64,000 nt of DNA, from assembly GCA_017479385.1 (NCBI GenBank), contig JAFVCE010000024.1, positions 21,179 to 85,178 of the forward strand, in the 5' to 3' direction. Each line of letters begins with the position of its first letter. The first letter of the stretch is position 1. The notes beneath the pieces are model-generated. The model was not told the origin of the DNA. It made no database searches and saw nothing but the letters and a program-made list of their open reading frames with translations. This DNA comes from Bacteroidales bacterium (lineage in GTDB: Bacteria > Bacteroidota > Bacteroidia > Bacteroidales > P3). The position numbers and the translations under genes are program-made. Positions 1,833-58,978 of this stretch are shown here, piece by piece.

Positions 1833-3137
1833 ATGAAACAGGTTTACGTCGGTATGAGCGCCGACATGATTCATCCGGGACACCTTAATATAATACACGA
1901 AGCCGTCAAGTTGGGCAGCGTCACCGTGGGCGTACTCACCGACGCGGCCATCGCCAGCTACAAGCGTCTGCCGTACCTCACCTACGAGCAACGCGCCGAG
2001 ATTGTAAGTAACATTAAAGGTGTAGACCGTGTGGTTCCGCAAACAACGCTCGACTATGTGCCCAACCTGCGAGAACTGAAGCCCGATTATGTTGTTCATG
2101 GCGACGATTGGAAAGAGGGTGTGCAGCAAAAGACTCGCCAACGTATTATCGAAGTGATGGCAGAGTGGGGTGGCAAGGTAATCGATATACCTTATACACA
2201 GGGTATTAGCAGTACCGCTATGAACCAACGCTTGAAAGAGATTGGCACCACACCCGAAATTAGGATGAAGCGTCTGCGCCGCCTTATTGGGGCTAAAAAG
2301 ATTGTCCGTATACTCGAGAGCCACAGCGGTTTGACGGGTCTCATTATCGAAAATACCAGCGTCGAAGTTAACGGCAAGAAAGAGGAGTTCGACGGTATGT
2401 GGGCAAGCAGCCTCACCGACAGTACCAGCAAAGGTAAGCCCGACATCGAGGCGGTGGACATAACAACGCGTCTGCACGACCTGAACGACGCCCTCGAGGT
2501 CACTACCAAGCCTGTAATATTCGATGGCGACACTGGCGGCAAAGTCGAGCACTTCGTTTTCACTGTCCGCACCCTCGAGCGCCTCGGCATTTCGGCCGTG
2601 ATTATAGAGGATAAGGTAGGGCTGAAACAGAATTCGTTATTCGGCACCGATGCCGTCCAAACACAAGACACCATCGAGGGCTTTAGTGCTAAAATCCGCG
2701 CCGGTAAGAACGCCCAAATCACCGAAGATTTCATGATAATTGCCCGCGTAGAGAGCCTAATTGCTGGTAAGCCGGTCGAAGACGCCCTCGAGCGCGCTCA
2801 TGCCTACGTAGCCGCTGGCGCCGACGGCATTATGATTCACAGCAAAAACAAAGACGGGCAAGACATTAAAGAGTTCTGCCAACGCTTCCGCGCAACCGAT
2901 GTTGAGACCCCAATTGTGGCTGTCCCAACAACCTATAATCAGTTTACAGAAGACGAGCTGGCCTCCTGGGGCATTAACGTCGTTATTTACGCCAACCATA
3001 TGCTCCGTGCTGCCTACCCGGCAATGGTCGACTGCGCAAGGAGCATACTCACCCATCAGCGTAGCCTCGAAGCTTCGGAACAGTACTGTATGCCTATCAA
3101 AGAAATACTTACCCTCATTCCTGGAACTAAGAAATGA
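1833..3137 (+). CDS. aepX: bifunctional cytidylyltransferase-like domain / phosphoenolpyruvate mutase (PepM)
   Basis: 434 aa. Residues 1 to about 130 carry an HxGH (HPGH) TagD/ECT-like cytidylyltransferase fold. The rest carries PEP-mutase motifs ([29 protein letters not shown]). Confidence 0.85.
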
Positions 3138-4258
3138 TTGATACACAGTTCTTTGTAGAAACGTTGCGCAGTGGTGGAATCGACTTTTTTGCCGGCGTCC
3201 CAGACTCGTTGCTCAAAAATGTTTGCGCCTACATAACCGACCACCTCGACGCAGCGCATAACATCATAGCCGCCAACGAGGGTGCTGCTGTGGCGCTGGC
3301 TGCTGGTCACTACCTCGCAACTGGCTCCCCAGCCTGCGTCTATATGCAGAACAGTGGCGAGGGTAACGCCGTCAACCCACTTGCCTCGCTCACCGACCCC
3401 GAGGTATACAACATCCCACTGCTGCTCCTCATAGGCTGGCGTGGGCGCCCGGGAGTTCACGACGAGCCGCAACACATCAAGCAGGGAAAAATAACCATGG
3501 GCTTACTCAATGTGCTGGGAATCAACTACGATGTGCTCTCTAAAGACGAATCGGTAGCCGCACGTCAGCTCGCCGTTGCGCTCGCGGCCGTCAAGTCGGG
3601 CTCGACCTACGCTATAGTGGTCGAAAAAGATACTTTCGACGCCTACCAACTCCAATCAAAAACCGAAACCAACCTCGCGCTCGGTCGCGAAGAGGCCATT
3701 GGCTACGTGGCTCGCGCCATAGGTTCTAACGACGTGATTGTCAGTACAACGGGAATGATTAGTCGCGAACTTTTCGAGTACCGTGTGGCCATGGGGCAAG
3801 GGCACGAACGCGACTTCCTTACAGTTGGTTCGATGGGTCACGCCTCGCAGATTGCTCTCGGCATCGCTTTGGCACAACCTCAGCGCCGAGTTTGGTGCTT
3901 CGATGGCGATGGTGCAACAATAATGCACATGGGGTCTATGGCAATTTTGGCCTCTAAAAAGGTCGAAAACTACGTCCACGTGGTGTTCAACAATGGCGCA
4001 CACGACTCGGTTGGAGGTCAGCCCACCGTTGGGCTGCAAATAGACCTCCCTGCTGTTGCCCGCGCAGTTGGCTATAGCCACGCTATGAGTGTCGAAACGG
4101 TAGATGACCTTGCTAATTCTCTCAAAGTTATTGAAAATCAGAAAGGTGTAATTTTGCTCGAGGTCAAGGTCCGCAAAGGTAACCGCAAAGACCTCGGCCG
4201 CCCAACCACAACGCCGGTGCAGAACAAGGAAGCTCTGATGAACTTCCTTCGCAGTTGA
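3134..4258 (+). CDS. aepY: phosphonopyruvate decarboxylase (ThDP-dependent)
   Basis: 374 aa with ThDP-binding motif FDGDGA...[11 protein letters not shown] and an N-terminus typical of Ppd ([11 protein letters not shown]). It overlaps the PepM gene by an ATGA overlap. Confidence 0.85.
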
Positions 4259-4429: not shown

Positions 4430-4484
4430 GAGTATTCGATGTTAATACGACCTTAACCCGACCTTAACCCGACTATGACCCATT
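4430..4484 (+). repeat. 11-bp phased repeat array, short member of the dispersed family (copy H)
   Basis: Units are gagtattcgat gttaatacgac cttaacccgac cttaacccgac tatgacccatt. The array overlaps the ohrR stop codon at 4473-4475. Confidence 0.7.
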
Positions 4485-9691: not shown

Positions 9692-10026
9692 CTAACTTTT
9701 TTTTGATTGGCAAAATTTTTCTGCAAAAAAATATCTAACTATCTGATTCATATGACAATATTTTTCTCGAGAGTTTTATCGCGGCCCCACTTTTCTGTTT
9801 TTTGTGGGTGCTGTTTGGTCCCGTTTTGATTGGTTTTGCACCGTCTGTATTTCTTTTTGTGGGGCAGAATTTGTTTTATCGCAAGTTTTCCATAGGGACC
9901 GAGTGCGGCCGGCCTCACAACCATAATGTTCGGATTATGATTACTGTAGACGCCGATTTTTTGTGATATAAGAATGGTCCAAAATCGCCAAAAATAACGC
10001 ATTTTTGGGCGAAAAATGGCAGTTTT

Positions 10027-10129
10027 GTAACTGCCTGAAAATCAGTAGTCGAGAAATATCATCTCTTACTCATCTCTTACTCTTCTCTTAATCAACTCTT
10101 AGTATGCTCTAACGATTGTAAGAGTTGAT
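10027..10129 (+). repeat. AT-rich diverged member of the dispersed 11-bp-phased repeat family (copy X)
   Basis: It starts with gtaactgcc, as copy B does, followed by 11-nt units atctcttactc atctcttactc ttctcttaatc. It also contains an 11-bp inverted repeat, atcaactctta (10091-10101) with taagagttgat (10119-10129). Confidence 0.55.
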
Positions 10130-10249
10130 ATAGGAATGACTATGTTTTGTATACTTTTTTGATAGTTTTTTGACTGAATGAGTTGTGCGAAATGAGCCCG
10201 CGGTGGGTGGCAAAAGCTTGTTCTTTTTTGAGGGGAGGGGCTTTGGGGG

Positions 10250-10288
10250 ATAAAAAATAAGGCGGCGAACTCGTGCGAGTTCGCCGCC
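10250..10288 (-). terminator. intrinsic terminator of yebC transcript
   Basis: Hairpin ggcggcgaactcg/cgagttcgccgcc (10261-10288). On the minus strand it is followed by ttatttttta. Confidence 0.75.
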
Positions 10289-10400
10289 TCAATGGTCCGG
10301 CTCGTGGCCTGGTGGAGCGTGTTGTTGTGGCCTCAATGGTCCGATTCGTGGCCTGGTGGAGCGTGTTTTTGTGGCCTCAATGGTCCGGCTCGGGGCTCAG
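10287..10400. repeat. 44-bp tandem repeat, about 2.6 copies
   Basis: cctcaatggtccggctcgtggcctggtggagcgtgttgttgtgg (10287-10330) is repeated at 10331-10374 with 3 mismatches. A partial third copy starts at 10375. The repeat lies between the yebC stop and its terminator. Confidence 0.9.
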
Positions 10401-14615: not shown

Positions 14616-15461
14616 TTACTCGATAGAGCATTGGGCAGCATTGAGAACTTGGCGTGTGTTTGCATTGGTTGCAAAAGCCACAATATGAGCGTTTTGCAGG
14701 TCTTGTATAGACCTCAATACGACCTTAATACGACCTTGATAGGTCTTACCTGCTGGTGCCGAGGTTGTTACGGTGTTGCCCCAAAGGTCGGTTACCACTT
14801 GGCGTAGTATGTGGTTGTGGCGATAGTCGCTTATTGGGGTCGAGTTGGTGAGTTGGGGGTATGCGAGCGAGTCTTCGGTGGTGACGATGGTGATGTTGAG
14901 AGGGTAGTCTACCGCGTCGAGCAATTCGAGGTTGAGGGTGATGTCGGTCGAGTCGCCCTGCTGTGTGGCGTGGCAGTCGAGGGCGACGAGTGGCGTTTGG
15001 GCGTTGGCCGATTCTATGGCTGGCGTCATGCCGCTAATGGCAGGCGAACCGGTAAAGAGGTCCCACTGGCCGTCGTTGTTGGTGCGGTTGAGCATGGCGG
15101 TTGGGCGGAAGCTCACACCGAAGAAGCGAGCCCAAGTCGAGCCGTCGTCGGTGCGAGTGTCGAGTGATGCGCCGAGAGGTTCCTCGTCGGGATGGGTGAT
15201 AGAGACGAGCACGAGTCGGTCGCCGACTTGCTCGTGGGCCAGCTCCAGTGCTTGGTCGGCCACTGGGCAGTTGCTGCAACGTGGCCCTGTGTATTTTTCG
15301 ACCAGGGCTTTGTGGCTGTGGTCGGATAGGGCGGTGCCGTCGGTCCAGCTGATTTGTGGCCCGGCATAGGTGGTGTAGTTGCCGTTGGCGTCGGGCTCGA
15401 TGGTGTCGCACGAGGTGGCCAAGAGGGCTATCATTATTATGGGTAGTGCTATTTTTTTCAT
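14616..15461 (-). CDS. Omp28-related outer-membrane lipoprotein with thioredoxin-like CxxC
   Basis: I place the start at MKKIALPIIMIALLATSC (lipobox, ATG 15461-15459). It has a YTGPRCSNCP CxxC motif. The track ORF extension to 15818 is Arg/Pro-rich antisense of the next gene and I reject it. Confidence 0.8.
   Translation of the reverse strand: MKKIALPIIMIALLATSCDTIEPDANGNYTTYAGPQISWTDGTALSDHSHKALVEKYTGPRCSNCPVADQALELAHEQVGDRLVLVSITHPDEEPLGASLDTRTDDGSTWARFFGVSFRPTAMLNRTNNDGQWDLFTGSPAISGMTPAIESANAQTPLVALDCHATQQGDSTDITLNLELLDAVDYPLNITIVTTEDSLAYPQLTNSTPISDYRHNHILRQVVTDLWGNTVTTSAPAGKTYQGRIKVVLRSIQDLQNAHIVAFATNANTRQVLNAAQCSIE
14710..14745 (+). repeat. three 11-bp units of the dispersed repeat inside the Omp28-like CDS (copy G)
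   Basis: Units gacctcaatac gaccttaatac gaccttgatag gtc. Positions 14710-14728 are 19/19 identical to 24110-24128 of copy A. Confidence 0.8.
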
Positions 15462-21653: not shown

Positions 21654-21673
21654 TGTCTTTGTTTGTGACGTGT

Positions 21674-23836
21674 TTATTGTTTGACAAATTTTGCCACACG
21701 AGTGCCAACGCGCAGGGCGTATACGCCTCGGGGCAAACGACTAATGTCGATATCGGTTTCGCCAGTCACGGTTTGCGAGGCAATCATGCGGCCGTCGGCG
21801 GCAAAAACGGTGAGAGTCATAGGCGTGTCGGTTCCTGTCATGACGGTGACGTTGCTGCTCGCAGGATTGGGGTAGACCATGAGCGGCGTGGTGATGGGGA
21901 TGGCGGGGGTTATGCCGAGTTTGCGTATGGCCATATTGACGGCGCGCAGTGCGTCGACTTTGCCCCATCCCCATCTCGAGCTTATGCTGTCGCTTTCGCG
22001 TATCGGACCGGTGGTAATGTCGTTGCGGGTGGTGGTGAAGAGGCATTCGCGCACTTGGTCGACGTTGAGGTTCGGGTTGGCTTGTAGCAGCAGTGCAACG
22101 ATGCCGCTCACGGCTGGCGACGACATTGAGGTGCCGTCGAATGCTGCCCATTCGTAGATTTCTCCATTGAAGGAACTGGTGTAGCTCACATGTTCGTCGC
22201 GGTCGGTGCGGTAGGAGTTGAGCGACGAAACGACAGCCTTGCCGGGAGCCGATATTTCGGGTTTGTCTACGCCGTTGATGAGTGGCCCAATGCTGCTGAA
22301 CGAGGTGATTCTGCCAATGGTTACGGTCGAGTCGAGGTGCATGACGTCGGCAGCGTGTGCGGCAACGGTGATACATTTCGAGGCGCATGCCGGTTCGCTA
22401 ATGCCGTAGGTGTTGCCACCACTGACGTAGTTTGGTTTGTTGTTGTCGTAGAAGTTGCAACCGGTGTTGCCAGCATGGTTCTGGAGGTTCCAAACGTTCC
22501 AGGCGTGGACTGTACCCGACTGGGCGGTGATGAAGAGTTCGAGTGTGCCGGTGCTGGTCTTGCCAGCGTCGATTTGTATGTGGGTGCGGTGGCTAAAGCC
22601 GTAAGGGTAGTCGTGTTCGGCCATGACGGTGATGGGAATGGTTTCGGTGCCGAGGGTGATGGTGTCGAAGATGATGGTGATAGAGTCGGTCGAGTACCAC
22701 GGCGAGGTCCACTCGGTACTGTCGTCAAGCTGGTAGCGGATTTGGGCTTTGAAGTCGCGTTCGGGTTCGCCCCACATTATCAGGGCTTGGCCAGCTTCGC
22801 CATAGTCGTGTGCGGCTGGCGAGCGGAAGATGGTGGCAAAGGTGCGAAGGGTGTCGCCTTGGGTTTGGCTAAAGTCGTGGACAAGGTGGAAGTTGACGTC
22901 GCCGTTGTTGCCGGCGCTGGTGCAGAAGATGACACCTTGGGATGCCATCGTGTCGATGGTTTGGCTGAGGAGAGACTGGCCTTCGAGGCTGCTAAAGGTG
23001 TACATACCCCAACTGCTGTTGATGACTATGCGTCGGCCTTCGTCGTTGGCCACGCGCTGCATCCACGCGGCGGCGTCTATCCACGAAGCTTCGTCGAGCA
23101 GGAACGACGACATTAGCAGGTCGGCGTAGGGGGCTTGGCCTTGATATTCGTAGGTGCCATCGCTGCCACGCACACCGCGGCCGGCGGCAATGCCTGTCAC
23201 GTGGGTGCCATGGGTGCCATGCTTGTAGATGTTGAGGGTGTCGCACTCGGCTTCGAATAGGGCGTCGGTGCCAATTATCTCGGTTCCATAGTCGTAGCCT
23301 TGTGGATGTGGTTGGGCAGTGCGAAACTGGTCCCAAACTCGTTTTATGCGGCGGTTGTCGTTGGCACGGTTATTGTAGTTGATGTGTTTGTAGTCGAAGC
23401 CCCAGTCGGTGATACCTATATAGACGCCGCGGCCGTCGAAAGCCGTGTCGCCAATCACGCCGAGGCCTCGTTTAACGCTGTCGGTGCGGGTGTCGAAAGT
23501 GGTGTTTTGGCAGTATGTGCCGCCGATTGGGTGCGAGATGGTGTACTGTTCGACCATGCGGCTGGTGTCGAGCCACGTCAGCGCGGTTTGCGGCACGGTG
23601 AGGGTGACCATTTGGCCTATTTTGGAGCCGATGCGGATGCCTGTTTTTTCGACTGCCGAGGGGTCGTAGCCGGGTGCCATTTTGGCAATCATGCGAAATT
23701 GGGTCGAGCCGGCGGCGGCTTGCTGTTTGACGAGGGCAAGTGTGCTAACGTCGCACTTCGCCGATTGGGCAAAAATCGAGCCTATGAGGCTCATTGTTAG
23801 GATGATAGAGATGGTTCTTTTCATATCCATATTCAT
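21674..23836 (-). CDS. S8 (subtilisin-family) serine peptidase with T9SS C-terminal sorting domain
   Basis: 720 aa with a signal peptide, the motifs HGTHGTHVTGIAAG and GTSMSSPAVSGIVALL, and a C-terminal VYPNPASSNVTV...GVYALRV Por-secretion tail. The start could be M1, M3 or M5. Confidence 0.88.
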   Translation of the reverse strand: MNMDMKRTISIILTMSLIGSIFAQSAKCDVSTLALVKQQAAAGSTQFRMIAKMAPGYDPSAVEKTGIRIGSKIGQMVTLTVPQTALTWLDTSRMVEQYTISHPIGGTYCQNTTFDTRTDSVKRGLGVIGDTAFDGRGVYIGITDWGFDYKHINYNNRANDNRRIKRVWDQFRTAQPHPQGYDYGTEIIGTDALFEAECDTLNIYKHGTHGTHVTGIAAGRGVRGSDGTYEYQGQAPYADLLMSSFLLDEASWIDAAAWMQRVANDEGRRIVINSSWGMYTFSSLEGQSLLSQTIDTMASQGVIFCTSAGNNGDVNFHLVHDFSQTQGDTLRTFATIFRSPAAHDYGEAGQALIMWGEPERDFKAQIRYQLDDSTEWTSPWYSTDSITIIFDTITLGTETIPITVMAEHDYPYGFSHRTHIQIDAGKTSTGTLELFITAQSGTVHAWNVWNLQNHAGNTGCNFYDNNKPNYVSGGNTYGISEPACASKCITVAAHAADVMHLDSTVTIGRITSFSSIGPLINGVDKPEISAPGKAVVSSLNSYRTDRDEHVSYTSSFNGEIYEWAAFDGTSMSSPAVSGIVALLLQANPNLNVDQVRECLFTTTRNDITTGPIRESDSISSRWGWGKVDALRAVNMAIRKLGITPAIPITTPLMVYPNPASSNVTVMTGTDTPMTLTVFAADGRMIASQTVTGETDIDISRLPRGVYALRVGTRVAKFVKQ

Positions 23837-23849
23837 TATATGCGATATG

Positions 23850-23857
23850 CAAAGTTA
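23850..23857 (-). promoter_or_regulatory. -7 box TAACTTTG upstream of S8 peptidase
   Basis: The reverse complement of caaagtta lies 14 nt from the first ATG. Confidence 0.5.
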
Positions 23858-23894
23858 CGATTTTTTTTTATATAATGGAAAAAATATTGATGTT

Positions 23895-24080
23895 TGGGGC
23901 GTATTTGGGTCGCGGAGGGGTGTGATTGACGTTGGATTTGGGTCTGTGGGGGTAGGGTTTGGGGTGCAGATGGATTGTGATTGGCGAGGTTTTGGGGTCG
24001 GGCAGTGGAGGGTATGAGGAGGGGTAGAGTAGCGGAAAAGGTTGCGAAAAAATGGTGTTTGGGAGGGGTATAAATCGGGG
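23895..24080 (+). other. G-tract-rich spacer (G-quadruplex-prone) next to repeat copy A
   Basis: At least 13 runs of 3 or more G on the plus strand in about 185 nt, counted by eye. Confidence 0.7.
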
Positions 24081-24081
24081 C

Positions 24082-24167
24082 GTAAGTGGTTCAGTATCAA
24101 GCGTTGTTCGACCTCAATACGACCTTAACCCCTCTTTAACACGACTCGACCCCTGTGTTTCAATCAG
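24082..24167 (+). repeat. dispersed 11-bp-phased repeat, copy A
   Basis: gtaagtggt, then tcagtatcaag cgttgttcgac ctcaatacgac cttaacccctc tttaacacgac tcgacccctgt gtttcaatcag. Confidence 0.85.
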
Positions 24168-24192
24168 TTACAAGGGCGGTGTTTAGGGGTTT

Positions 24193-25797
24193 TTAGGGGG
24201 CGGTGCGGGGGGTGATAGAGATGTGGGTTATCTCGATGCGCCGGGCGCGCATGGCGTCGAGGCTGAAGATGGGGTCGTGGCCTGGGGCTACGGTTTGGTG
24301 GTCGGAGCCGTCGGGTCGCGCTTCGAGCGAGAGTTGGCCGTCGTCTATAAAGTCTTCAAGTTGGCCGTCGCGCCATTGTCGCAGGTGGTTCAGGAGTGTG
24401 GCTATGCGGCGTTGCGAGAGGCGCCGGTTGTAGGCCGAGGTGTGGCGCGGACTGGCATAGCCGCCCACGACGAGGGTGACGTTGCGGCCGGCTTCGAGGC
24501 TGTCGGCGAGTATGGCTACGAGGCTGTCGAGGCGGGCATAGGCGGTTGGCAGCTCGTGGTCGAAGAAGTGGGCCACACCTTCGCGTGCCGAGTCGGGCTG
24601 GGCATCGATGTAGGTTTGGCGCAGGGTGGTGTAGGATTGGTAGCACTGGGCATAGGCGGTTGTTGTGGTTGTGGCGCGGCTGCGCGGGTTGGGCTCGTCG
24701 TTGTGGAAGTAGAGCGGCAGTGGCGGCACAACGAGGCGCTCGAGCAGCCTACGCAGCGAGTCGGCACGGGCCAGGGCCTGCCCAGCGGTGTCGGGCGGTG
24801 GGGGAGTGGTGGGGGTGGTATCGACCAAGAGGGTGGTGTCTAACGCCCAGTGGTAGAGGTCGTTGCAGCAGGTCGAGTCGGTAACAAAGTACGAGTCTTC
24901 GCGGTTCGAGGAGAGGTAGCCCTCGACTGGTTGTTGGCCCACGTGGCGGGTTATGGTGAAGTAGATGTCGTTGTAGGCGCTTTGCATACAGTGGCATATT
25001 GGTGCTGGTTCGACCCAAGTGTTGCGGCTACCGTGAGAGTAGTATATGTCGAACCCGCCGGCGCCGCCAGGGCGGTCGCTGCTGTAGTAGAGGGTGTGGT
25101 TAGGGTTGTCGTAGAAAGGGGTGATTTCGTCGAACGGGGTATTGACGGGCATACCGAGGTTGGTGCTGACGCCTGGGCGGCCAGCCACGATGAGGCTGTA
25201 CCAGATGTCGAGTCCGCCCACGCCACCCGGACGGTCAGACACGAAGTAGAGTATCAGTGTCGAGTCGTTCACACGTTCCACGGCTGGGTGGGTGGCTGTG
25301 TAGCCATGCATATTGATGTCGCCCCCCAGCGGCTCGGGTTTGAGCCACTGGCGTTTTTGGCGGCGTGCCACGTAAATCTGGCTGCGGAGGGCGGTGTCGC
25401 GAATGTCGGCACGCGTAAAGTAGAGGTCGCCCGTGGCTGGGTCGAGGGCGGCGTTGCCGGTGTGGTATCGGCTGTTGTTCAGGTTCCAGCGGTTGGGTAT
25501 GGGTTTCGAGAGGCGGCCGCTGCGCGAGTGGCGAGCTTGGACCAGTTGCATGACGCGCGGATTGTAGCGAAACATTCGGTTGTTGGTCGATAGCTCTTGG
25601 GTCGAGGCGTAGAGTAGCACCGTGTCGCCCACCATTATGGCGCCCGTTTCGCTGCCAGGTGTGTTGTATGGTTTTTTGAGGTGGGTTACGTTGAACTGCG
25701 CCGAAGCCTGCCACACGGCTGCCACAGCGGCCACGGCGAGCAAGGCGCGGCGCGTGGCGGCGATTAGGGCGGTTGTGTTGTGGCTTGGGCGGCTCAT
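24193..25797 (-). CDS. OmpA-family protein with TolB-like beta-propeller repeats
   Basis: 534 aa with a signal peptide, repeated Y(F/Y)xSDRPGG(x)GGxDI(W/Y)YS motifs and a C-terminal OmpA-like peptidoglycan-binding segment (GYASPRHTSAYNRRLSQRR). Confidence 0.85.
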   Translation of the reverse strand: MSRPSHNTTALIAATRRALLAVAAVAAVWQASAQFNVTHLKKPYNTPGSETGAIMVGDTVLLYASTQELSTNNRMFRYNPRVMQLVQARHSRSGRLSKPIPNRWNLNNSRYHTGNAALDPATGDLYFTRADIRDTALRSQIYVARRQKRQWLKPEPLGGDINMHGYTATHPAVERVNDSTLILYFVSDRPGGVGGLDIWYSLIVAGRPGVSTNLGMPVNTPFDEITPFYDNPNHTLYYSSDRPGGAGGFDIYYSHGSRNTWVEPAPICHCMQSAYNDIYFTITRHVGQQPVEGYLSSNREDSYFVTDSTCCNDLYHWALDTTLLVDTTPTTPPPPDTAGQALARADSLRRLLERLVVPPLPLYFHNDEPNPRSRATTTTTAYAQCYQSYTTLRQTYIDAQPDSAREGVAHFFDHELPTAYARLDSLVAILADSLEAGRNVTLVVGGYASPRHTSAYNRRLSQRRIATLLNHLRQWRDGQLEDFIDDGQLSLEARPDGSDHQTVAPGHDPIFSLDAMRARRIEITHISITPRTAP

Positions 25798-33330: not shown

Positions 33331-34239
33331 ATGAAAAAAACTATACATAATAACATCTTGAGCCGCCTCGTAGTGCTGCTAATGACGCTTGTCGCGGTCG
33401 AGTTCTCGGCCTGCGCCCAACCGCTGGCGGTCGACCGCTCGGTCGATTCGCTCCGCGTTGTTGGCGCCGAGTGGCGCGTTGACAGTCTCGACGGCTTTGT
33501 GCTCAAGCGCTATCACTTCGACGAAGGGCAACTGTTCAGCGCCGCCCAAAACCTCTGCCTCATCGAGATTCCGGCTGGCTCGCCACGGCGCTTGCGCTTT
33601 GTGGCCGACAGCGTGGCCCGACCCGTCTCCGAGTTGGCTTCCGAAGTCGGCGCCCTGGCTGCTGTCAACGGCTCGTACTTCGATATGCGCAGCGGTGCCC
33701 CCATTTGCTACCTCCGCATCGGTGGCCGCCAACTGGGCGAAAATATACCCAACGTCGGCGATTCGGTGCGTCGCAAATACTATCAGCACGCCACACTCAC
33801 TCTGCGCCAGGGTTTGCCGCTCATCGTCACCCCCGACACCAACCGTTTTTGGGAAGACAGCCTCGACTGCCGCAACGTGATGACGGCCGGCCCCATGTTG
33901 CTCAAGAGCGGAGCATTGGTGCCGCAGCGCGACGACCGCACCTTTGTCACCCATCGCCACAATCGCACCGCCATTGGCTTGCGGCCCGACGGCACGGTGG
34001 TTATTTTGGCCGTCGACGGACGCTTCCGCCACCGCTCAGAAGGGTTTACACTCAACGAGTTACAACTCGTTATGAAGTGGTTAGGCTGCGTCGACGCCAT
34101 CAACCTCGACGGCGGCGGCTCGACCACCATGTTTGTTGCTGGGCAAGACAGCAACGGGGTTGTCAACTACCCGTCCGACAACAATCGCTACGACCACCAG
34201 GGCGAGCGCCCTGTGGCCAATGCGGTAATCATCATTTAG
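33331..34239 (+). CDS. secreted phosphodiester glycosidase family protein (NAGPA-like, DUF2233)
   Basis: 302 aa with a signal peptide and the motifs AVNGSYFDM, RTAIGLRPDGTVVILAVDGR and AINLDGGGSTTM. Confidence 0.8.
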   Translation: MKKTIHNNILSRLVVLLMTLVAVEFSACAQPLAVDRSVDSLRVVGAEWRVDSLDGFVLKRYHFDEGQLFSAAQNLCLIEIPAGSPRRLRFVADSVARPVSELASEVGALAAVNGSYFDMRSGAPICYLRIGGRQLGENIPNVGDSVRRKYYQHATLTLRQGLPLIVTPDTNRFWEDSLDCRNVMTAGPMLLKSGALVPQRDDRTFVTHRHNRTAIGLRPDGTVVILAVDGRFRHRSEGFTLNELQLVMKWLGCVDAINLDGGGSTTMFVAGQDSNGVVNYPSDNNRYDHQGERPVANAVIII

Positions 34240-34315
34240 CATACCCTTCGGCACCGATAACACGATGCCTCTGGTTCGAGCGATGGTCGCCCGAAAGACC
34301 TATTTTTGGCGTGTC

Positions 34316-34401
34316 GTAACTGCCTCAGTATCAAGCCTTATTCGACCTCAATACGACCCTAACCCCTCTTTAATACGACTCTAACCCTGTAAATCAAGCA
34401 G
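34316..34401 (+). repeat. dispersed 11-bp-phased repeat, copy B
   Basis: gtaactgcc, then tcagtatcaag ccttattcgac ctcaatacgac cctaacccctc tttaatacgac tctaaccctgt aaatcaagcag. It lies between convergent gene ends. Confidence 0.88.
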
Positions 34402-34420
34402 TTATGAGCGCGTTTCGAGC

Positions 34421-34684
34421 CTATTTTGTGGCAATCGAACCTGGGTCGGGCTGGCGCTCGTCGCTCTCGGTGCAAACGCGCGAGCCGTAGCTGCCGTCGG
34501 TGCCGCGGTTGAGGGCCGAACAGGGGTTCGATGCGTCGGTGTAGACGGTGTTGGGCAGTGCGCCCTCGGCAGTGTAATCGTAGCAGTAGCAAGCCTTTGT
34601 GTCGCACGAGGTCATGGCCGTGGCGGCCATGGCGACCACGAGGGCTGCTGCGAGCTTGAGGCGGATGTGGTATTTCTTTGTCAT
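34421..34684 (-). CDS. small Cys-rich lipoprotein, unknown function
   Basis: 87 aa with lipobox AMTSC and five further Cys, including CYCY. Confidence 0.6.
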   Translation of the reverse strand: MTKKYHIRLKLAAALVVAMAATAMTSCDTKACYCYDYTAEGALPNTVYTDASNPCSALNRGTDGSYGSRVCTESDERQPDPGSIATK

Positions 34685-40332: not shown

Positions 40333-40432
40333 CGCCACTCACTGCACCTCCGTTTTTCGAACATCAAAACGTCGAAATCGCGCACCAATCCACACATCGA
40401 CCCAATGAAGACACTCGACACCTGAAGCAATC

Positions 40433-40462
40433 GGCCCCCGCCAACCAGGGTTGGCGGGGGCC
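40433..40462. terminator. GC-rich 12-bp hairpin between ispE and tRNA-Gly (terminator-like, no U-tract)
   Basis: ggcccccgccaa (40433-40444) pairs with ttggcgggggcc (40451-40462). It lies 5 nt beyond the tRNA-Gly 3' end. Confidence 0.5.
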
Positions 40463-40467
40463 TTGAG

Positions 40468-40543
40468 TGGAGCGATAGACGGGGGTCGAACCCGCGACCT
40501 GCGGCTTGGGAAGCCGCCGCTCTGCCAACTGAGCTACTATCGC
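40468..40543 (-). tRNA. tRNA-Gly (anticodon CCC), CCA encoded
   Basis: The reverse complement GCGATAGTAGCTCAGTTGGCAGAGCGGCGGCTTCCCAAGCCGCAGGTCGCGGGTTCGACCCCCGTCTATCGCTCCA folds by hand into a cloverleaf. The anticodon loop is TT-CCC-AA and the discriminator is U73. Confidence 0.88.
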
Positions 40544-40730
40544 GCAAAAACTTAACTCTTAAATAACGCCAGGTTTTAACATTTATTGTGTCCAAAATCA
40601 AAAAAAATGAAAATTTTTTCTGATTTTGCTCGTATCGGTTTGATTATCAATATTTAAAGTCGCGAAAAAAAATTTCCGAACCCCTATTTTCACCCTCCCC
40701 AACGGTGGCGCCGCAGTTGCCAACGCGTAA

Positions 40731-40817
40731 AAGCTTGAAAAACAGGGTTGAGGAGGGGTTAAAGAGGGGTTAGGGTCGTATTGAGGTCGAATAAGCATTG
40801 ATGTTGAGGCGATTAGC
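40731..40817 (-). repeat. dispersed 11-bp-phased repeat, copy D (reverse orientation)
   Basis: The reverse complement reads gctaatcgcc, then tcaacatcaat gcttattcgac ctcaatacgac cctaacccctc tttaacccctc ctcaaccctgt ttttcaagctt. Confidence 0.88.
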
Positions 40818-41057
40818 CCCCAATTATTACCCCTCCCAAACTCCCGGTTTTTGGCTCCAAATTCCCTCACAATGCGCTGCATATCACATCGTTATCCCTC
40901 TCTGTCGCCTCTTTTTATCGACCAAACTCAATCTCGAGTAGTTCTTCTCCCTTTCTAACCACCACGAAACCCCTCGCAAAGTGCGCTCAAACTTTCTTAA
41001 TAAATGTTAAAAATGCGAAAAATTACAGAAAAAACTCGCTATTTCGAAAAAAAGTAG

Positions 41058-41065
41058 TAATTTTG
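41058..41065 (+). promoter_or_regulatory. -7 box TAATTTTG upstream of rpsO
   Basis: It lies 51 nt upstream of the rpsO ATG. Confidence 0.55.
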
Positions 41066-41115
41066 CAACCCGAAAAGAAACAAAAAATTAACAAACCAAA
41101 AGATAACAAACCGCT

Positions 41116-41385
41116 ATGTATCTTACAAAAGAGAAGAAAGAAGAAATCTTTGCCCAGTATGGCAACTCGGTTAAAAACACCGGCTCGGCCGAGGCTCAAA
41201 TCGCCCTTTTCACCTATCGCATTCAGCACCTCACCGAGCTGATGAAGAAGAACAAAAAGGACCAAGTTTCGGAGCGCGCCCTGGTGGGCTTGGTCGGTAA
41301 ACGCCGCAAAATGCTCGACTACCTGAAAGAAACCGACATCGAGCGCTACCGCTCCATCGTCAAACAACTCGGCCTGCGTAAGTAA
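41116..41385 (+). CDS. rpsO: 30S ribosomal protein S15
   Basis: 89 aa, MYLTKEKKEEIFAQYG...GSAEAQIALFTYRIQHLTELMKKNKKD. Confidence 0.95.
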   Translation: MYLTKEKKEEIFAQYGNSVKNTGSAEAQIALFTYRIQHLTELMKKNKKDQVSERALVGLVGKRRKMLDYLKETDIERYRSIVKQLGLRK

Positions 41386-47349: not shown

Positions 47350-47417
47350 AATTCAAGCACTCAGCATCGCTCAACCATCGCCCAGCAGTCGCTGCACGAT
47401 GGGCTTTTCGTCGAATT

Positions 47418-47503
47418 GTAAGTGCCTCAGTATCAAGGCTTGTTCGACCTCAATACGACCCTAACCCCTCTTTAACCCCTCTTCAACCCTGTAAATCAAC
47501 CTT
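47418..47503 (+). repeat. dispersed 11-bp-phased repeat, copy C
   Basis: gtaagtgcc, then tcagtatcaag gcttgttcgac ctcaatacgac cctaacccctc tttaacccctc ttcaaccctgt aaatcaacctt. Confidence 0.88.
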
Positions 47504-47561
47504 TTATCTGCCCCAAACTAAAAAAAATGCACCTCGTGGCCGGTAATTCCGAAAAAATGTG

Positions 47562-51048: not shown

Positions 51049-51081
51049 CACTGGCTGCCACGTTTAGGTTGGCAGCCAGTG
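51049..51081 (+). terminator. ileS terminator hairpin
   Basis: cactggctgcca (51049-51060) pairs with tggcagccagtg (51070-51081) and is followed by ttgtgttgattg. Confidence 0.65.
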
Positions 51082-51082
51082 T

Positions 51083-51169
51083 TGTGTTGATTGTCAGTAC
51101 TTTGGAGGGGTTAGAGAGGGGTTAGGGTCGTATTGAGGTCGAATAAGCATTGGTATTGAGCTATTTACG
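51083..51169 (-). repeat. dispersed 11-bp-phased repeat, copy E (reverse orientation)
   Basis: The reverse complement reads cgtaaatagc, then tcaataccaat gcttattcgac ctcaatacgac cctaacccctc tctaacccctc caaagtactga caatcaacaca. Confidence 0.85.
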
Positions 51170-51296
51170 ACCTATAGTTTTAGCGATGTCTACCCCTCGG
51201 CAGGGCGAAGCCAGGGCGACAAAAATATATAGAAATAAAAAACATTGCCACAAATTTTAGTATCTGCAGCAGTGCCAAATGTGTGGATGTTGGCTG

Positions 51297-51427: not shown

Positions 51428-51470
51428 AAAAAAAATTTAGTTAGGCGCGGCGCTTCGCGCCGCGCCTAAC
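51428..51470 (-). terminator. intrinsic terminator of ftcD
   Basis: Near-perfect 13-14-bp GC hairpin gttaggcgcggcg...cgccgcgcctaac (51440-51470). On the minus strand it is followed by a run of 8 T. Confidence 0.8.
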
Positions 51471-55086: not shown

Positions 55087-56264
55087 TTTTGTGCGGCGTT
55101 GATGAGTGTTTGTTCCAGTTTGGCTGTAGCCGCTTCCCAGCTGTAGTTTTTAATAACAAAGTTGTGGCCTGCAGTTGCGAGCAATCTGCTCTGGGGCTCG
55201 TTCTGAAGCAGGGTTACGATGTGTTTGGCCAGGGTTTGTGGGTCGTTGCCGACGAGTATTTCTTGGCCGTCGGTGGCTTTCAGCGACGCGTTGGCGATGT
55301 CGGTCGTTATGCAAGGAAGGTTCATTGCCATGGCTTCGAGCAGTTTGTTCTGCAATCCAGACCCGATTCGCATAGGTGCAACGAAAAGTCGGCTTTGGGC
55401 GTAGCATTGGCGCATATCGTCTACCCAGCCGCTTATTGTAACCTCTTCCGACGCCAGATTTCTGACGCTGGCAGCGGGTGAAGCGCCTGCAATTAAGACT
55501 TTGACCGATGTCAACACGACCTTAACCCGAGGCAATACCTGCTCTATGAGGTAGCGAGCGGCGTCGATGTTTGGCGCATATTGCATATTGCCACAGAAAA
55601 GTATGTCGTATTTTTTTTGTATATTGGTTGGAGCGAAGTGCTTGGTATCCACCCCGTTAGGTACGATGACGATGTTGCTATTGTTTTTGTGCAAAATGGC
55701 ATCGCGGTCGGTTTCGGCTATGATAGTTTGTCGGTCGAAAAGGTCGCACGCCAGATGTTCGGCTTTGCAAAGAGCCTTGTATTCATAGCGCAATGCGCTG
55801 CGTAACAGGATATTGCGAGTGCTCTCCATGCGACGTTGAGTGTTCATTGAGAGTGCGTCCTGGAAGTCGATGACTTTGGGTGCATTGGAACCTTGAACGA
55901 TGGGCATGGTGCGAACCATTTGGCAATAGACCACATCGGGTTGAACTCGTTTTTCGAATTGCCGGTAGAGTTGTCGTGCTTTGTTAGAGTACCAGTATCC
56001 GAGTTGTAATGGTTTGGAAGTTAAGATGTTGCGTACTGTGTTTGCATAGCTTACCAACTTTGATGGGTGGGCAATGACGATTTCTTTGCAGTAGGGGCGC
56101 ATAGCGTTGTACCACTCGTTGGCCACTTTGGTGTGCGAAATGCAGAAGAGGTAAATATCGTTGTTTGCCGACATCAACCTTATTTGGTGAAAAGCACGCA
56201 GTTTATCGCCTTTCTCCAAAGGGTAGGGAAATCGTGGCAGAACGACTAATATTTTCATTATCAA
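55083..56264 (-). CDS. GT-B fold glycosyltransferase (GT4-like)
   Basis: 393 aa with a C-terminal GSGLQNKLLEAMAMNLPCITT E-x7-E-type region. Confidence 0.8.
   Translation of the reverse strand: MIMKILVVLPRFPYPLEKGDKLRAFHQIRLMSANNDIYLFCISHTKVANEWYNAMRPYCKEIVIAHPSKLVSYANTVRNILTSKPLQLGYWYSNKARQLYRQFEKRVQPDVVYCQMVRTMPIVQGSNAPKVIDFQDALSMNTQRRMESTRNILLRSALRYEYKALCKAEHLACDLFDRQTIIAETDRDAILHKNNSNIVIVPNGVDTKHFAPTNIQKKYDILFCGNMQYAPNIDAARYLIEQVLPRVKVVLTSVKVLIAGASPAASVRNLASEEVTISGWVDDMRQCYAQSRLFVAPMRIGSGLQNKLLEAMAMNLPCITTDIANASLKATDGQEILVGNDPQTLAKHIVTLLQNEPQSRLLATAGHNFVIKNYSWEAATAKLEQTLINAAQK
55507..55530 (+). repeat. fragment of the dispersed repeat inside the glycosyltransferase CDS (copy I)
   Basis: gatgtcaacacgaccttaacccga matches gatgttaatacgaccttaacccga at 4438-4461 in 22 of 24 positions by hand alignment. 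Confidence 0.7.
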
Positions 56265-56267
56265 TGT

Positions 56268-58886
56268 TTAGAATAGTTCGGTTTGTGTTCCTTCGGCAAA
56301 ACCCACGTTGTCTGCACTGTCTGTTGCGGGTGTTGGTTCCTCCTCTTCAGCCTCGGGGCTGGGTTCGGGCTCTGGCAGTGGTTCGAGCCATCTCAGGGTG
56401 TCTATATCGGTGGTAGTGAGTCGTTTACCTTTGGCTTTGTATCCTTTAACGGCTATGAACTCTGCTATATCGATGGTTTCGGAAGGCGTTTTTTTGTTGC
56501 TCTTCTCGCTGTATACTATTTCGAGTTGCGGATAGGTGTCGATGGCGAACGACAGCAACTTGGCGCCGTCGTCGATAAATGCAGTTTTCTTGTCGCCAGC
56601 CTCTGGCTGAAAACGTTTCACGTAAGGAAATCCTGATTCTGGGTCGGTGTAGATGGCAGTTATGATAGTGGCAGGGTTGTATTTGCGGATGTCGATAAGG
56701 TCGTCGTCGAAGTGGTTCGAAAGGTCGAAGTTGGTTATGCGATAGCAGCCCGACTGCATGATTGTGAGTATCTTGTCGCTTCCCTTAAATTCGCCAAGTA
56801 GTCGGCCTGCCTCGTTGACATTGAGGCGTTTAACGCTTTCGTCGAACCATATTTTGCGAGCTCCGAGGGTCGATATGCCCTCGCCTTTGAGGTTGATGCT
56901 TCGCACTGCGTTTCGGGTAAGAATGTTGCCAATAGACTGGCGCCCTTTTATGGCGAGCGAAGCAAAATCGAAGTCGAAACTGACTTTGCGCAGCCCTGGT
57001 TTCGAGGCGTGGTGAATCGTTACCACTTCGGCCTCGCCGTTCGGGTTAGCGGTGAAGTATAGAATTTTTGTTCCTTTTGTTCCTTTGGTGAGTTGGTAAT
57101 CGCGGTCGCGCGTTATGCCGATGACGGAGAAGCGTTTGACGTAGGCAAAGCCGAACGAGCCGTCGCGATAAATCATGTTATAGACTGTGCGCTCGTCGTT
57201 TTTGCGGAATATGGATATGAAGAGGATTTCTTTGCACTCTTGCGACCCAACAAACCCTTTTTCTTGAATTTTGGTGACCATCATTGTGCCGTCGCGGCGG
57301 AAGACGATGATGTCGTCCATTCGAGAACAGTCGCAAACCGTCTCAACACCTTCTTCTTTTTTCAGACCGTAGCCGGCAAATCCAGTGCTGCGATTGACGT
57401 AGAGTTTCTCGTTGGCCACGGCCACAGTAACTGCTTGAATATCTTCGAAATTGCGAATTTCGGTGCAGCGTTCGCGGCCTTTGCCGTATTTTTCGAGCAG
57501 GTGTTCGAAATAGCTCACGGCATAGTCGGTCAGGTTGGCCAAGTGGTTTTTTACCTCCTCGATGGTCATTTCGATGTTGGAGAGTTCCTCTTCGGCCTTT
57601 TTTATGTCGAATTTCGAAATTTTTCGGACTGGTTTTTCGCACAGTTTTAGTATGTCGTCGCGCGTGATTGTGCGTTTGAAGAGTTTGCGATAGGGGTCGA
57701 AGGCGCGTTCTATCTCGGTTACTTGAGCCTCCCACGAATCGCTGTCGCGTTCGAGGACTTTGTAGATTCGTTTTTCGAAGAATATTTTTTCAAGGTTCAC
57801 CCAGTGCCATCGGCCTTCGAGTTCGTCGAGTTGGATTTCGAGTTCGCGCCGCAGTAGGTCGCGGGTGCGCATAGTGGAGTGTCGCAGGATGTCGCTCACC
57901 GTCATGAATACGGGCTTGTTGTCGACTATGACGCACGTTTGGGGCGAGAACGAGGTTTGGCAGTTGGTGAAGGCGTAGAGGGCGTCTATGGTTTGGTCGG
58001 GCGATATGCCAGCTGGCAGGTGGACCACAATTTCGACGTCGGCAGCCGTGTTGTCGTCGACTTTTTTTATCTTGATTTTTCCTTTTTCGTTGGCTTTGAC
58101 AATGCTGTCGATTAGGACATCGGTCGTTATGCCGTATGGTATTTCGGTGATAATGATGGCTTTACGTTTTTCGTCGTAGTGCATCTTGGCGCGAATGCGG
58201 AGTCGTCCGCCCTGGGCGCCGTCGTTGTATCGACTCACGTCGATTAGGCCTCCGGTGGGGAAGTCGGGGTAGATTTCGAAGGGTTGGTTGCGGAGGATTT
58301 TGATGCTGCTTTCGAGTAGTTCGCAGAAGTTATAGGGGAGGATGACCGAGGTGAGGGTGACGGCAATGCCTTTGGTGCCTTGGGCAAGGAGCAGTGGGAA
58401 CTTGACGGGTAGGGTAACGGGTTCTTGTTTGCGGCCGTCGTAGCTGGGTTTCCACTCGGTTGTTTTGGGGTTGAAAACCACGTCTTTAGCAAATTTTGAG
58501 AGCCTTGCCTCGATGTATCGGCCGGCGGCGGCGTCGTCGCCGGTGAGTATGTTGCCCCAGTTGCCCTGGCAGTCGATGAGTAGGTTTTTTTGGCCGAGGT
58601 TGACGAGTGCGTCTTTGATGGAGGCGTCGCCGTGGGGGTGGTATTGCATGGTGTTGCCCACGATGTTGGCCACTTTGGTGAAGCGTCCGTCGTCGGTTTC
58701 CTTCATGGCGTGGAGTATGCGACGTTGAACTGGTTTGAGGCCGTCGTCGATGTCGGGCACGGAGCGGTCGAGGATGACGTCGGAGGCATAGTCCACCCAG
58801 TAGTCGCGGAACATGGTGTTGAGCGACATGGTTTGGCCTTCTTGGGGTGGCTGTGGGGTGGGGTGGGGGGTGAGGTTTTCGTCCAT
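56268..58886 (-). CDS. parC: DNA topoisomerase IV subunit A (GyrA/ParC family)
   Basis: 872 aa with GLKPVQRRILHAM and the active-site region AAGRYIEARL. It has a Pro-rich N-terminal extension and an acidic C-terminal extension. Confidence 0.88.
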   Translation of the reverse strand: MDENLTPHPTPQPPQEGQTMSLNTMFRDYWVDYASDVILDRSVPDIDDGLKPVQRRILHAMKETDDGRFTKVANIVGNTMQYHPHGDASIKDALVNLGQKNLLIDCQGNWGNILTGDDAAAGRYIEARLSKFAKDVVFNPKTTEWKPSYDGRKQEPVTLPVKFPLLLAQGTKGIAVTLTSVILPYNFCELLESSIKILRNQPFEIYPDFPTGGLIDVSRYNDGAQGGRLRIRAKMHYDEKRKAIIITEIPYGITTDVLIDSIVKANEKGKIKIKKVDDNTAADVEIVVHLPAGISPDQTIDALYAFTNCQTSFSPQTCVIVDNKPVFMTVSDILRHSTMRTRDLLRRELEIQLDELEGRWHWVNLEKIFFEKRIYKVLERDSDSWEAQVTEIERAFDPYRKLFKRTITRDDILKLCEKPVRKISKFDIKKAEEELSNIEMTIEEVKNHLANLTDYAVSYFEHLLEKYGKGRERCTEIRNFEDIQAVTVAVANEKLYVNRSTGFAGYGLKKEEGVETVCDCSRMDDIIVFRRDGTMMVTKIQEKGFVGSQECKEILFISIFRKNDERTVYNMIYRDGSFGFAYVKRFSVIGITRDRDYQLTKGTKGTKILYFTANPNGEAEVVTIHHASKPGLRKVSFDFDFASLAIKGRQSIGNILTRNAVRSINLKGEGISTLGARKIWFDESVKRLNVNEAGRLLGEFKGSDKILTIMQSGCYRITNFDLSNHFDDDLIDIRKYNPATIITAIYTDPESGFPYVKRFQPEAGDKKTAFIDDGAKLLSFAIDTYPQLEIVYSEKSNKKTPSETIDIAEFIAVKGYKAKGKRLTTTDIDTLRWLEPLPEPEPSPEAEEEEPTPATDSADNVGFAEGTQTELF

Positions 58887-58930
58887 TGGGTAGGGGGTTG
58901 AGTGGGGTTGTGGTCGGGGGTTAGTGGGCT

Positions 58931-58978
58931 GATTATCAATGCTTGTTCGAGCTCAATACGACCTTAATACGGTCTCAG
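58931..58978 (+). repeat. dispersed 11-bp-phased repeat, truncated copy F
   Basis: gattatcaat gcttgttcgag ctcaatacgac cttaatacggt ctcagg, preceded by G-tract-rich DNA at 58850-58930. Confidence 0.75.

Follow-up and report, generated by a model that had tools for sequence, protein, structure and literature searches.

There is ample literature on small dispersed repeats for Proteobacteria, Firmicutes, and cyanobacteria. BOX of Streptococcus pneumoniae and BIME/REP of the enterobacteria are short, modular, intergenic repeats that occur at gene ends in both orientations and are capable of forming hairpins, and binding of gyrase and IHF, as well as effects on termination and on the stability of mRNA, have been reported for REP/BIME. 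STRR of heterocystous cyanobacteria consist of a few tandem, very short units at dispersed loci; they are strand-asymmetric and of unknown function. Units of 11 bp are also found in the iterons of the plasmid R1 parC centromere and the pMV158 origin, and in OmpR/PhoB-type sites spaced 11 bp apart, all of which allow cooperative binding on one face of the DNA. For the Bacteroidales, we found little literature: our searches returned no 11-bp direct repeats in Bacteroides, only papers on repeats and transposons of Porphyromonas and Prevotella. Here, we describe a dispersed repeat family with an internal 11-nt period in a 64,000-nt stretch of contig JAFVCE010000024.1 (hereafter, the window), which derives from an uncultured rumen Bacteroidales metagenome-assembled genome (MAG) and has near-identical counterparts (99.996–100%) in ruminant gut metagenome assemblies.

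The element is roughly 90–125 bp long, non-coding, and present at about one copy per 10 kb. Each full copy carries five 11-nt units (YAAYMCGACYY / TAACCCCTCTT), a 29-nt core is nearly invariant, and the long copies add an inverted, G-rich module to the left of the array. The family is real: its copy density, phasing, hairpin module, conserved core, restriction to intergenic DNA, and lack of an orientation rule are all directly observed. Mobility, protein binding, and bending are what we infer.

Like BOX and BIME/REP, the family is non-coding and intergenic, lies mostly at gene ends or in convergent gaps, and includes hairpins, and BOX likewise has a variable internal module. Here, however, the internal module is made of 11-nt units rather than a 45-nt boxB or a 35-nt palindrome, no sequence similarity to these repeats is seen, and the host is a Bacteroidales MAG. 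What identifies a REP is also lacking, in that the core (TTCGACCTCAATACGACCYTAACCCCTCT) is not palindromic, its strand has no significant fold, and there is no palindrome tagged with GTAG or CGTC. The STRR unit is 7 nt and has no conserved flanks, whereas the units here are 11 nt and lie inside a conserved element of 90–125 nt. Iterons and OmpR/PhoB sites share the head-to-tail arrangement and the 11-bp period, but those are single-copy regulatory or partition sites, with units nearly the same and their cognate genes beside them, whereas these arrays are dispersed, their units are dissimilar, and no cognate gene is nearby. We therefore reject plasmid centromeres and replication iterons as an identity, given also the chromosomal housekeeping context (pnp, ileS, rpsO, a parC-like gene, and hflX) and the lack of any plasmid match; the analogy with plasmid partition centromeres drawn in the preliminary description does not suit a chromosomal repeat found about once per 10 kb.

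The REPIN/RAYT systems (the subject of PMC3116915 and PMC3337134) resemble this family in other ways. REPINs are also about 100–125 nt long, with two inverted arms and many intergenic copies, are also restricted to particular lineages, and are also best conserved in the part that the enzyme presumably recognises. By comparison, the arms here are only about 15 nt (GGGG..GGGG / CCCC..CCCC) and the loop, of about 48 nt, bears the core; several copies have no left arm, and no RAYT gene was seen in the window. The family differs from REP, BOX, MITE, and STRR by its 11-bp phasing together with an inverted module and a conserved core. It is still a small dispersed intergenic repeat, and one that is undescribed in the resources searched.

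The 18-mer TTCGACCTCAATACGACC has five exact matches in the window, and nine matches with up to three mismatches where 0.03 are expected from shuffled sequences. An nhmmer profile built from the five full copies recovers these with E = 1e-22 to 3e-27 and a truncated copy with 3e-9, and all six copies reported earlier proved to be in place and colinear on alignment; a variant copy is added as a seventh member (E = 4e-7). A longer profile gives E values down to 3e-34 and covers about 123–127 nt in the long copies, so the element, at about 125 nt in its full form, is longer than the 77 nt plus a 9–10-nt left flank first proposed. In the window, there are thus five full copies, one truncated copy, and one variant. 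These are copy A (24053–24175, plus strand, long form; E = 1.5e-33 with the longer profile), copy B (34288–34411, plus strand, the locus of the preliminary description, with a degenerate left module; E = 3.7e-31), copy C (47388–47510, plus strand; E = 4.9e-33), copy D (40721–40845, minus strand, long form with the best hairpin; E = 3e-34), copy E (51073–51199, minus strand, long form; E = 3.5e-27), copy F (58899–58970, plus strand, truncated or diverged past unit 2; E = 7.5e-13), and copy G (4430–4481, plus strand, a variant array; E = 4.8e-12 with the longer profile).

Identity between copies is about 80–88%. The hand alignment of copies B and C, identical at 66 of 77 positions, was reproduced exactly, and the reported similarity of copies D and C amounts to 88% over 88 nt. 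The high density noted earlier also holds beyond the seven copies, with three more in 20 kb of contig L028 (two at convergent sites and one co-directional with the sense strand), which probably belongs to the same MAG, being linked to the window through L029, a contig from the same sample with an identical open reading frame (ORF). One further copy is found in another rumen MAG (contig L016), at an unrelated locus with metG and restriction-modification genes, where it lies antisense and downstream of metG. It came from a contig scan with the 18-mer in which the matches listed were mostly chance single matches; L005, L009, and L016 were examined, and only L016 holds a true copy. Two other contigs, L007 and L017, give weak partial profile matches only, a metagenome scan with a 23-mer gave no matches, and in relatives whose polynucleotide phosphorylase (PNPase) is 90–94% identical, the 12–22 kb seen of each contain no main-family copy. 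Two independent short-read (Logan) contigs, L026 and L027, end inside copy G (window position 4465), as expected of a multicopy repeat that breaks assemblies.

The units are read most easily when anchored on the core, in the order ATCAAGGC.., TTGTTCGACCT, CAATACGACCC, TAACCCCTCTT, TAACCCCTCTT (replaced by TAATACGACTC in copies A and B), and CAACCCTGTAA. They are markedly dissimilar to one another (compare TAATACGACCT with TAACCCCTCTT), and the pattern common to all of them is only YAAY.C..C. The register is strict, and the 11-nt periodicity claimed earlier is sound: self-matching peaks at lag 11 in every copy (21–28 of 48 positions, compared with 6–23 at other lags), Tandem Repeats Finder (TRF) and a second repeat search both return period 11, and the phasing is present in 10 of 10 copies examined as well as in variant arrays of other MAGs. 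Unit 4 duplicates unit 2 in copies A and B and unit 3 in copies C, D, and E. More generally, arrays of period 11 are enriched over those of periods 8, 10, 13, and 14 in the window, L022, and L016; once the family is masked, intergenic DNA still shows an excess at lag 11 (0.310 compared with about 0.29), but by only some 2.6 standard errors. Within the same 85 nt, conservation is concentrated in the core, where 1 of 29 columns is variable as opposed to 41 of 56 in the flanks (p = 2e-10), with pairwise differences of 1% and 28–41%, respectively.

The left module, GTTTGGGAGGGGTAWWAATYGGGG (GGGAGGGGTAWWAATYGGGG), is an inverted version of units 3–4 (CCCCTCTTTAACCCC) and pairs with them; it is present in copies A, D, E, and F and in the copies of L028, and the long copies can therefore form a large, imperfect hairpin. 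The duplex between module and array is stronger than in shuffled sequences (z = −3.9 for copy D and −2.95 for copy E). Copy D as a whole folds at −54.2 kcal/mol (z = −3.16), its stem bounded at the base by an A-run and a T-run, whereas the C-rich strand of the array has no significant fold (z between +0.18 and −1.58). That strand holds 25–33 C and 7–15 G per 86-nt copy in the window and L028, and 21 C and 19 G in L016. The internal inverted repeat is stronger than the terminal one: the 8-nt termini of copy B, GTAACTGC...GCAGTTAT, agree in inverted orientation at 7 of 8 positions, and the corresponding figures are 7 of 9 for copy A and 5 of 9 or fewer for copies C, D, and E. The element had been called non-palindromic and without terminal inverted repeats, a description that is only partly right, given the left module and the termini of copy B.

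The window is ordinary chromosome, carrying thrS-infC-rpmI-rplT, rpsO-pnp, ileS, a parC/gyrA-like gene, hflX, genes related to the type IX secretion system, and a GH92 gene. Intergenic DNA amounts to 4701 nt (7.3%), and all seven copies lie in it, as had been said of the full ones; the chance of this is about 0.073^7. Copies B, E, and G sit between convergent genes, copy C is co-directional with its C-rich strand as the sense strand, copies A and F are co-directional and antisense, and copy D lies in a divergent gap. Over the 11 copies, 5 are convergent, 2 co-directional sense, 3 co-directional antisense, and 1 divergent. The inconsistent orientation noted at the outset is thus borne out, and in the absence of any rule a role at the level of DNA fits better than one in a sense RNA. 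In many copies (A, B, F, G, L016, and L028:5872–5992), the right end follows a stop codon at a distance of 0–27 nt. Copy D, between a tRNA gene on the minus strand and rpsO on the plus strand, does not conform to the earlier statement that copies are usually at gene 3' ends.

The reading that we favour, tentatively, is that of a REP/BOX/MITE-like non-autonomous repeat in which the phased units may constitute a bent, protein-binding DNA array. It is suggested by the many diverged copies in non-coding gaps, the enrichment between convergent genes, and the occurrence in either orientation, and also by the confinement to one lineage with an unrelated locus in a second MAG, the broken assemblies, and the turnover of related arrays. 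The inverted left module with its hairpin, the 29-nt core, and the sister arrays described below point towards such a repeat rather than a dedicated iteron array.

Under this reading, copies would arise by a copying process (transposition or recombination) and would persist only in gaps without genes, for the most part between gene ends. The head-to-tail array of five units would put the same bases on one face of the duplex at each helical turn, and could in this way allow a protein to bind cooperatively, the mobilising enzyme being the most plausible candidate and a nucleoid protein another. A strict register of one turn combined with a conserved core suggests that the array is read by something periodic, and binding by a protein would account for a 29-bp core that stays nearly invariant while the remainder drifts. 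As single-stranded DNA or RNA, the long copies may fold into their large imperfect hairpin, which may incidentally act as a barrier to transcription at some positions. A wedge-model calculation predicts curvature of 49–82 degrees per 90 bp for the main family, with a window background of 30 ± 17 and a 99th percentile of 74. The idea of a phased protein-binding or curved array, put forward in the preliminary description, is in keeping with the phasing and this predicted curvature but sits less well with units that share only YAAY.C..C.

There are several points against this reading that the researcher should keep in mind. The curvature is a model prediction with wedge parameters after Bolshoy et al. 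1991, and no curvature is predicted for the sister family at 10027. With so little in common, the units would be weak as a single recognition motif. The invariance of the core is in part owed to the way copies were chosen, since the L016 copy was retrieved through an exact 18-mer, and the variant copies F, G, and L028:1472–1596 differ within the core. Of this MAG, about 100 kb were read; no mobile-element gene, whether transposase, RAYT, or integrase, was found among the ORFs scanned in the 64 kb. The terminal inverted repeats are short, degenerate, and good only in copy B, and the ends of the element are less conserved than its middle, the opposite of a typical MITE. The flanks read hold no consistent direct repeat around any copy, in agreement with the earlier remark that target-site duplications are absent, and no filled site with an empty orthologue was obtained for the main family. 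Finally, an identity of only about 80–88% speaks against a recent burst. One candidate duplication, a GGTGTTT(G/A)GG..GGGG repeat around copy A, appears instead to be a second left module.

Two other explanations deserve to be weighed at some length, and we consider both unlikely. One holds that the family is a transcription-boundary element acting on RNA, the C-rich strand being a rut site for Rho and/or the long-form hairpin and its T-run being a partly bidirectional intrinsic terminator or insulator. The primary site of Rho is described as about 57 nt long, with six YC dimers (Y, pyrimidine) and linkers of some 9 nt between them, which makes the period about 11 nt (PMC6144790). The arrays resemble such rut sites: over about 60 nt the strand is rich in C, poor in G, and unstructured, and every unit has its YC dinucleotide at the same phase. 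Beside copies A and F, moreover, are C-rich tracts on the opposite strand, where they are sense to the upstream gene, 5 of 11 copies lie between convergent genes, and an A-run and a T-run flank the stem of copy D. Rut sites, however, form no conserved sequence family and act on the sense transcript only, whereas the orientation of this family is unrelated to transcription: the five convergent sites fit in either orientation, but the C-rich strand is sense at just 2 of the 5 co-directional sites, and copy D is in a divergent promoter region. An excess of C over G is not distinctive either, since the coding strand of the genome is already C-rich (C 31.2%, G 24.0%, and GC skew −0.13 over the whole window, with the same trend on the transcribed strand of intergenic DNA), and random sequence often contains YC dimers at regular spacing (PMC13613805). 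Several neighbours have hairpin-plus-T terminators of their own (FTCD at 51440–51470 and ileS at 51050–51082), and termination has no need of a 29-nt invariant sequence.

The other explanation, equally unlikely in our judgement, is that of a functionless relic, the decayed remains of an old burst of a minisatellite-bearing element in which units arose by replication slippage and conservation is owed to gene conversion. The 80–88% identity and the degenerate ends are what one might expect of this, and the duplication of unit 2 or unit 3 as unit 4 does point to slippage or conversion within arrays. Tandem repeats of arbitrary 11-nt units are, in addition, common, as the shuffled-core controls given below make clear. 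Nevertheless, a core differing by 1% beside flanks differing by 28–41% would hardly arise unless there were constraint or very local conversion, the core recurs in a second MAG, and the 11-nt register is strict in all variants.

The window and related contigs also hold sister arrays, which are built from other 11-nt units in a comparable arrangement: direct units come first, and in most of the arrays the last one then recurs inverted. The sister family at 10027–10130 (plus strand) begins with the same left motif as the main family, GTAACTGCC, and continues with four 11-nt units (TCATCTCTTAC) and a hairpin formed from the last one, ATCAACTCTTA...TAAGAGTTGAT; a perfect 7-bp hairpin, GGCAGTTttgtAACTGCC, stands at its left edge (10020–10037). 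With a second copy at about 960–1045 of L025, 9 kb upstream of the window, this family has at least two copies in the genome. Further arrays are found in L022 (two), in L030, L033, and L016 (one each), and in L034 (two, without an inverted copy). They occur in both orientations, divergent promoter regions included.

Contig L034 comes from a relative with ten genes in synteny with the window (21654–24192 in the window, 1543–3930 in L034; MatE to the S8 peptidase gene). Between the S8 peptidase gene and the gene that follows, L034 has 70 nt with a 3.5-unit array (TTAACCCGACC CAAACCCGTCT TCAACCCGACC), and the window has 20 nt with none; arrays of this kind have therefore been gained or lost over evolution. 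The synteny ends exactly at the intergenic region of copy A, where L034 has a POR gene in place of the PD40 and PorP genes. Among the relatives found, the closest (94% PNPase identity) show no synteny beyond rpsO-pnp, and for none of the main-family sites did a close relative with synteny turn up. Two relatives also carry 11-nt arrays some 160–170 nt downstream of pnp (L022 12419–12487 and L030 12450–12514), with unrelated units in opposite orientations; these could reflect a positional hotspot or a conserved role.

One should be careful not to read every 11-nt array as a relative. We rejected the idea that the AACCCGAC unit, of the type seen in copy G, is universally conserved: at least 120 metagenome contigs (GC 0.24–0.75) carry arrays with this core and none match the family profile, and the core is matched by 16 viral contigs where shuffled cores are matched by 11 and 4, counts similar enough for these matches to be ascribed to tandem 11-nt repeats in general and not to this family, the core not being demonstrably special. 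By period, the core has 16 matches at 11, 4 at 10, and none at 13, a hint, from small numbers, that 11 nt is generally favoured. The metagenome loci (L036–L155) and viral loci (L156–L171) contain 2–9 tandem units of NNNAACCCGAC, with a 3-nt spacer that is constant within an array and differs between arrays, and some of these arrays encode the C-terminal tail KPDINPT of winged-helix-like ORFs.

A more ambitious proposal, which we think rather improbable, is that the main family and the sister arrays together make up an unrecognised class of 11-bp phased array elements in rumen Bacteroidales, defined by a left motif, three to six units, and an inverted copy of one or more units. They would serve to organise the gaps between transcription units, either as dedicated platforms to which a nucleoid, topoisomerase, or transcription-boundary protein binds or as idealised modules for Rho loading, and the 29-nt core would be the recognition site.

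The weakest alternative, and a highly unlikely one, is an RNA-level regulator with transcribed copies (3' untranslated region-derived or independent small RNAs (sRNAs)) whose core would be a seed or a sponge for an RNA-binding protein, by analogy with the 14-copy FopS family of Bacteroides sRNAs, which binds RbpB and has a conserved single-stranded motif (PMC11697453); the conserved, unstructured core and the many copies at 0–27 nt past stops suit it, but the flanks read show no consistent Bacteroidetes promoter (TAnnTTTG) upstream on either strand, there is no common terminator, which also led us to reject independent sRNA genes, the strand read from the upstream gene varies among copies, and Rfam, in which the FopS structure is deposited according to its authors although its presence in the copy searched was not checked, gave no match at E <= 1.

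Other identities were discarded more readily. For the whole window, Rfam returned two tRNAs only, both at the gathering score and at E <= 1, and a permissive scan (E <= 10) of 40400–41100 returned noise, so the earlier statement that no described Rfam family is recognisable is upheld. A plasmid or phage origin was set aside after blastn gave nothing meaningful, and the sole viral match to the 18-mer is ordinary non-repeat sequence with no other part of the element, which we took as chance. As for coding, it had been claimed that every frame has stops. This is not so for copies A, C, and D, which keep one frame open across the element; the frame is interrupted in B, E, and G, there is no conserved start, gene calls on an identical contig place no gene there, and when 5.8 billion proteins were searched with a profile made from its translation, the only match was a spurious ORF of 71 aa. 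We rejected the coding hypothesis accordingly, although that spurious match is what led to contig L028. G-quadruplexes or i-motifs were likewise rejected, since four G/C runs with short loops exist only in copies C and D and not in A, B, or E.

Array-like DNA also occurs inside coding regions, at 14707–14746 (Omp28 gene, antisense) and 55495–55528 (GT1 gene), where it encodes GRIKVVLRS and PRVKVVLTS; one of these stretches includes a 19-nt exact match to copy A. An in-frame insertion into the Omp28 gene is not the explanation, as homologues keep the peptide YQGRIKV and most of the DNA is conserved in L034. These stretches may have arisen by coincidence or gene conversion, or may be where the unit came from. 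Three short resemblances we presume to be coincidental: TAATACGACTC of copy B (34373–34383) equals the first 11 nt of the T7 promoter, units 3–4 (CTCTTTAAC) match 9 nt of the Escherichia coli boxA consensus, and there is a likeness to the Haemophilus uptake sequence (AAGTGC).

The surroundings of the individual copies are as follows. Copy A consists, in order, of the G-rich left module, GTAAGTGG..ATCAAG, five 11-nt units, and the right end CAGTTAC; it lies about 20 nt (18–26, depending on the right end chosen) past the stop of a PD40 gene (24193–25797, minus strand), and the S8 peptidase promoter is about 170 nt away. Copy B lies between convergent neighbours, NAGPA (plus strand, ending at 34239) and an 87-aa ORF (minus strand, ending at 34421). 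Copy C is between an ABC permease gene (plus strand, ending at 47349) and ileS (plus strand, starting at 47637), about 50 nt upstream of the ileS −7 box, TAAATTTG. The tRNA gene (40471–40543, minus strand) and rpsO (41116–41385, plus strand) flank copy D. Copy E, whose right end adjoins the terminator-like hairpin of ileS, separates ileS (plus strand) from a convergent 40-aa ORF plus FTCD (minus strand), and copy F is found between the stop of a metallophosphatase gene (58980, minus strand) and the start of the parC/gyrA-like gene (58886, minus strand). Copy G, with the units GTATTCGATGT TAATACGACCT TAACCCGACCT TAACCCGACTA and a TRF period of 11, overlaps the stop codon of a MarR gene (4473), and its neighbouring genes are convergent. 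Next to it, at 1833–4258, genes for phosphoenolpyruvate mutase and a phosphonopyruvate-decarboxylase-like thiamine pyrophosphate enzyme suggest a phosphonate operon (e.g., for 2-aminoethylphosphonate).

Copies A, D, and F each adjoin degenerate C-rich tracts of period about 11 nt on the opposite strand. The one beside copy A (23890–24052, minus strand) is a degenerate array that is C-rich on the minus strand and has G-runs on the plus strand, with its period-11 signal at 24007–24050; the one beside copy D (40846–41000, plus strand) was read directly. On the plus strand at 58840–58930 and 23890–24080, GGGG runs recur every 11–12 nt or so, the transcribed minus strand being C-rich, and these tracts between co-directional genes could form G-quadruplexes or be Rho-loading tracts. 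A separate tandem repeat of 44 nt (10286–10373; two copies at 93% identity and a partial third) separates the stop of a yebC-like gene (10415) from a strong hairpin at 10261–10288 that resembles a minus-strand terminator.

For those who work with these MAGs, the repeat breaks short-read assemblies and is a possible strain-typing marker. For the biology of the group, the family provides a defined sequence with which one can ask whether a protein is recruited to such repeats, the candidates being a mobilising enzyme, a nucleoid protein, gyrase, and Rho, and whether the repeats shape supercoiling or transcription boundaries in gut and rumen Bacteroidales.

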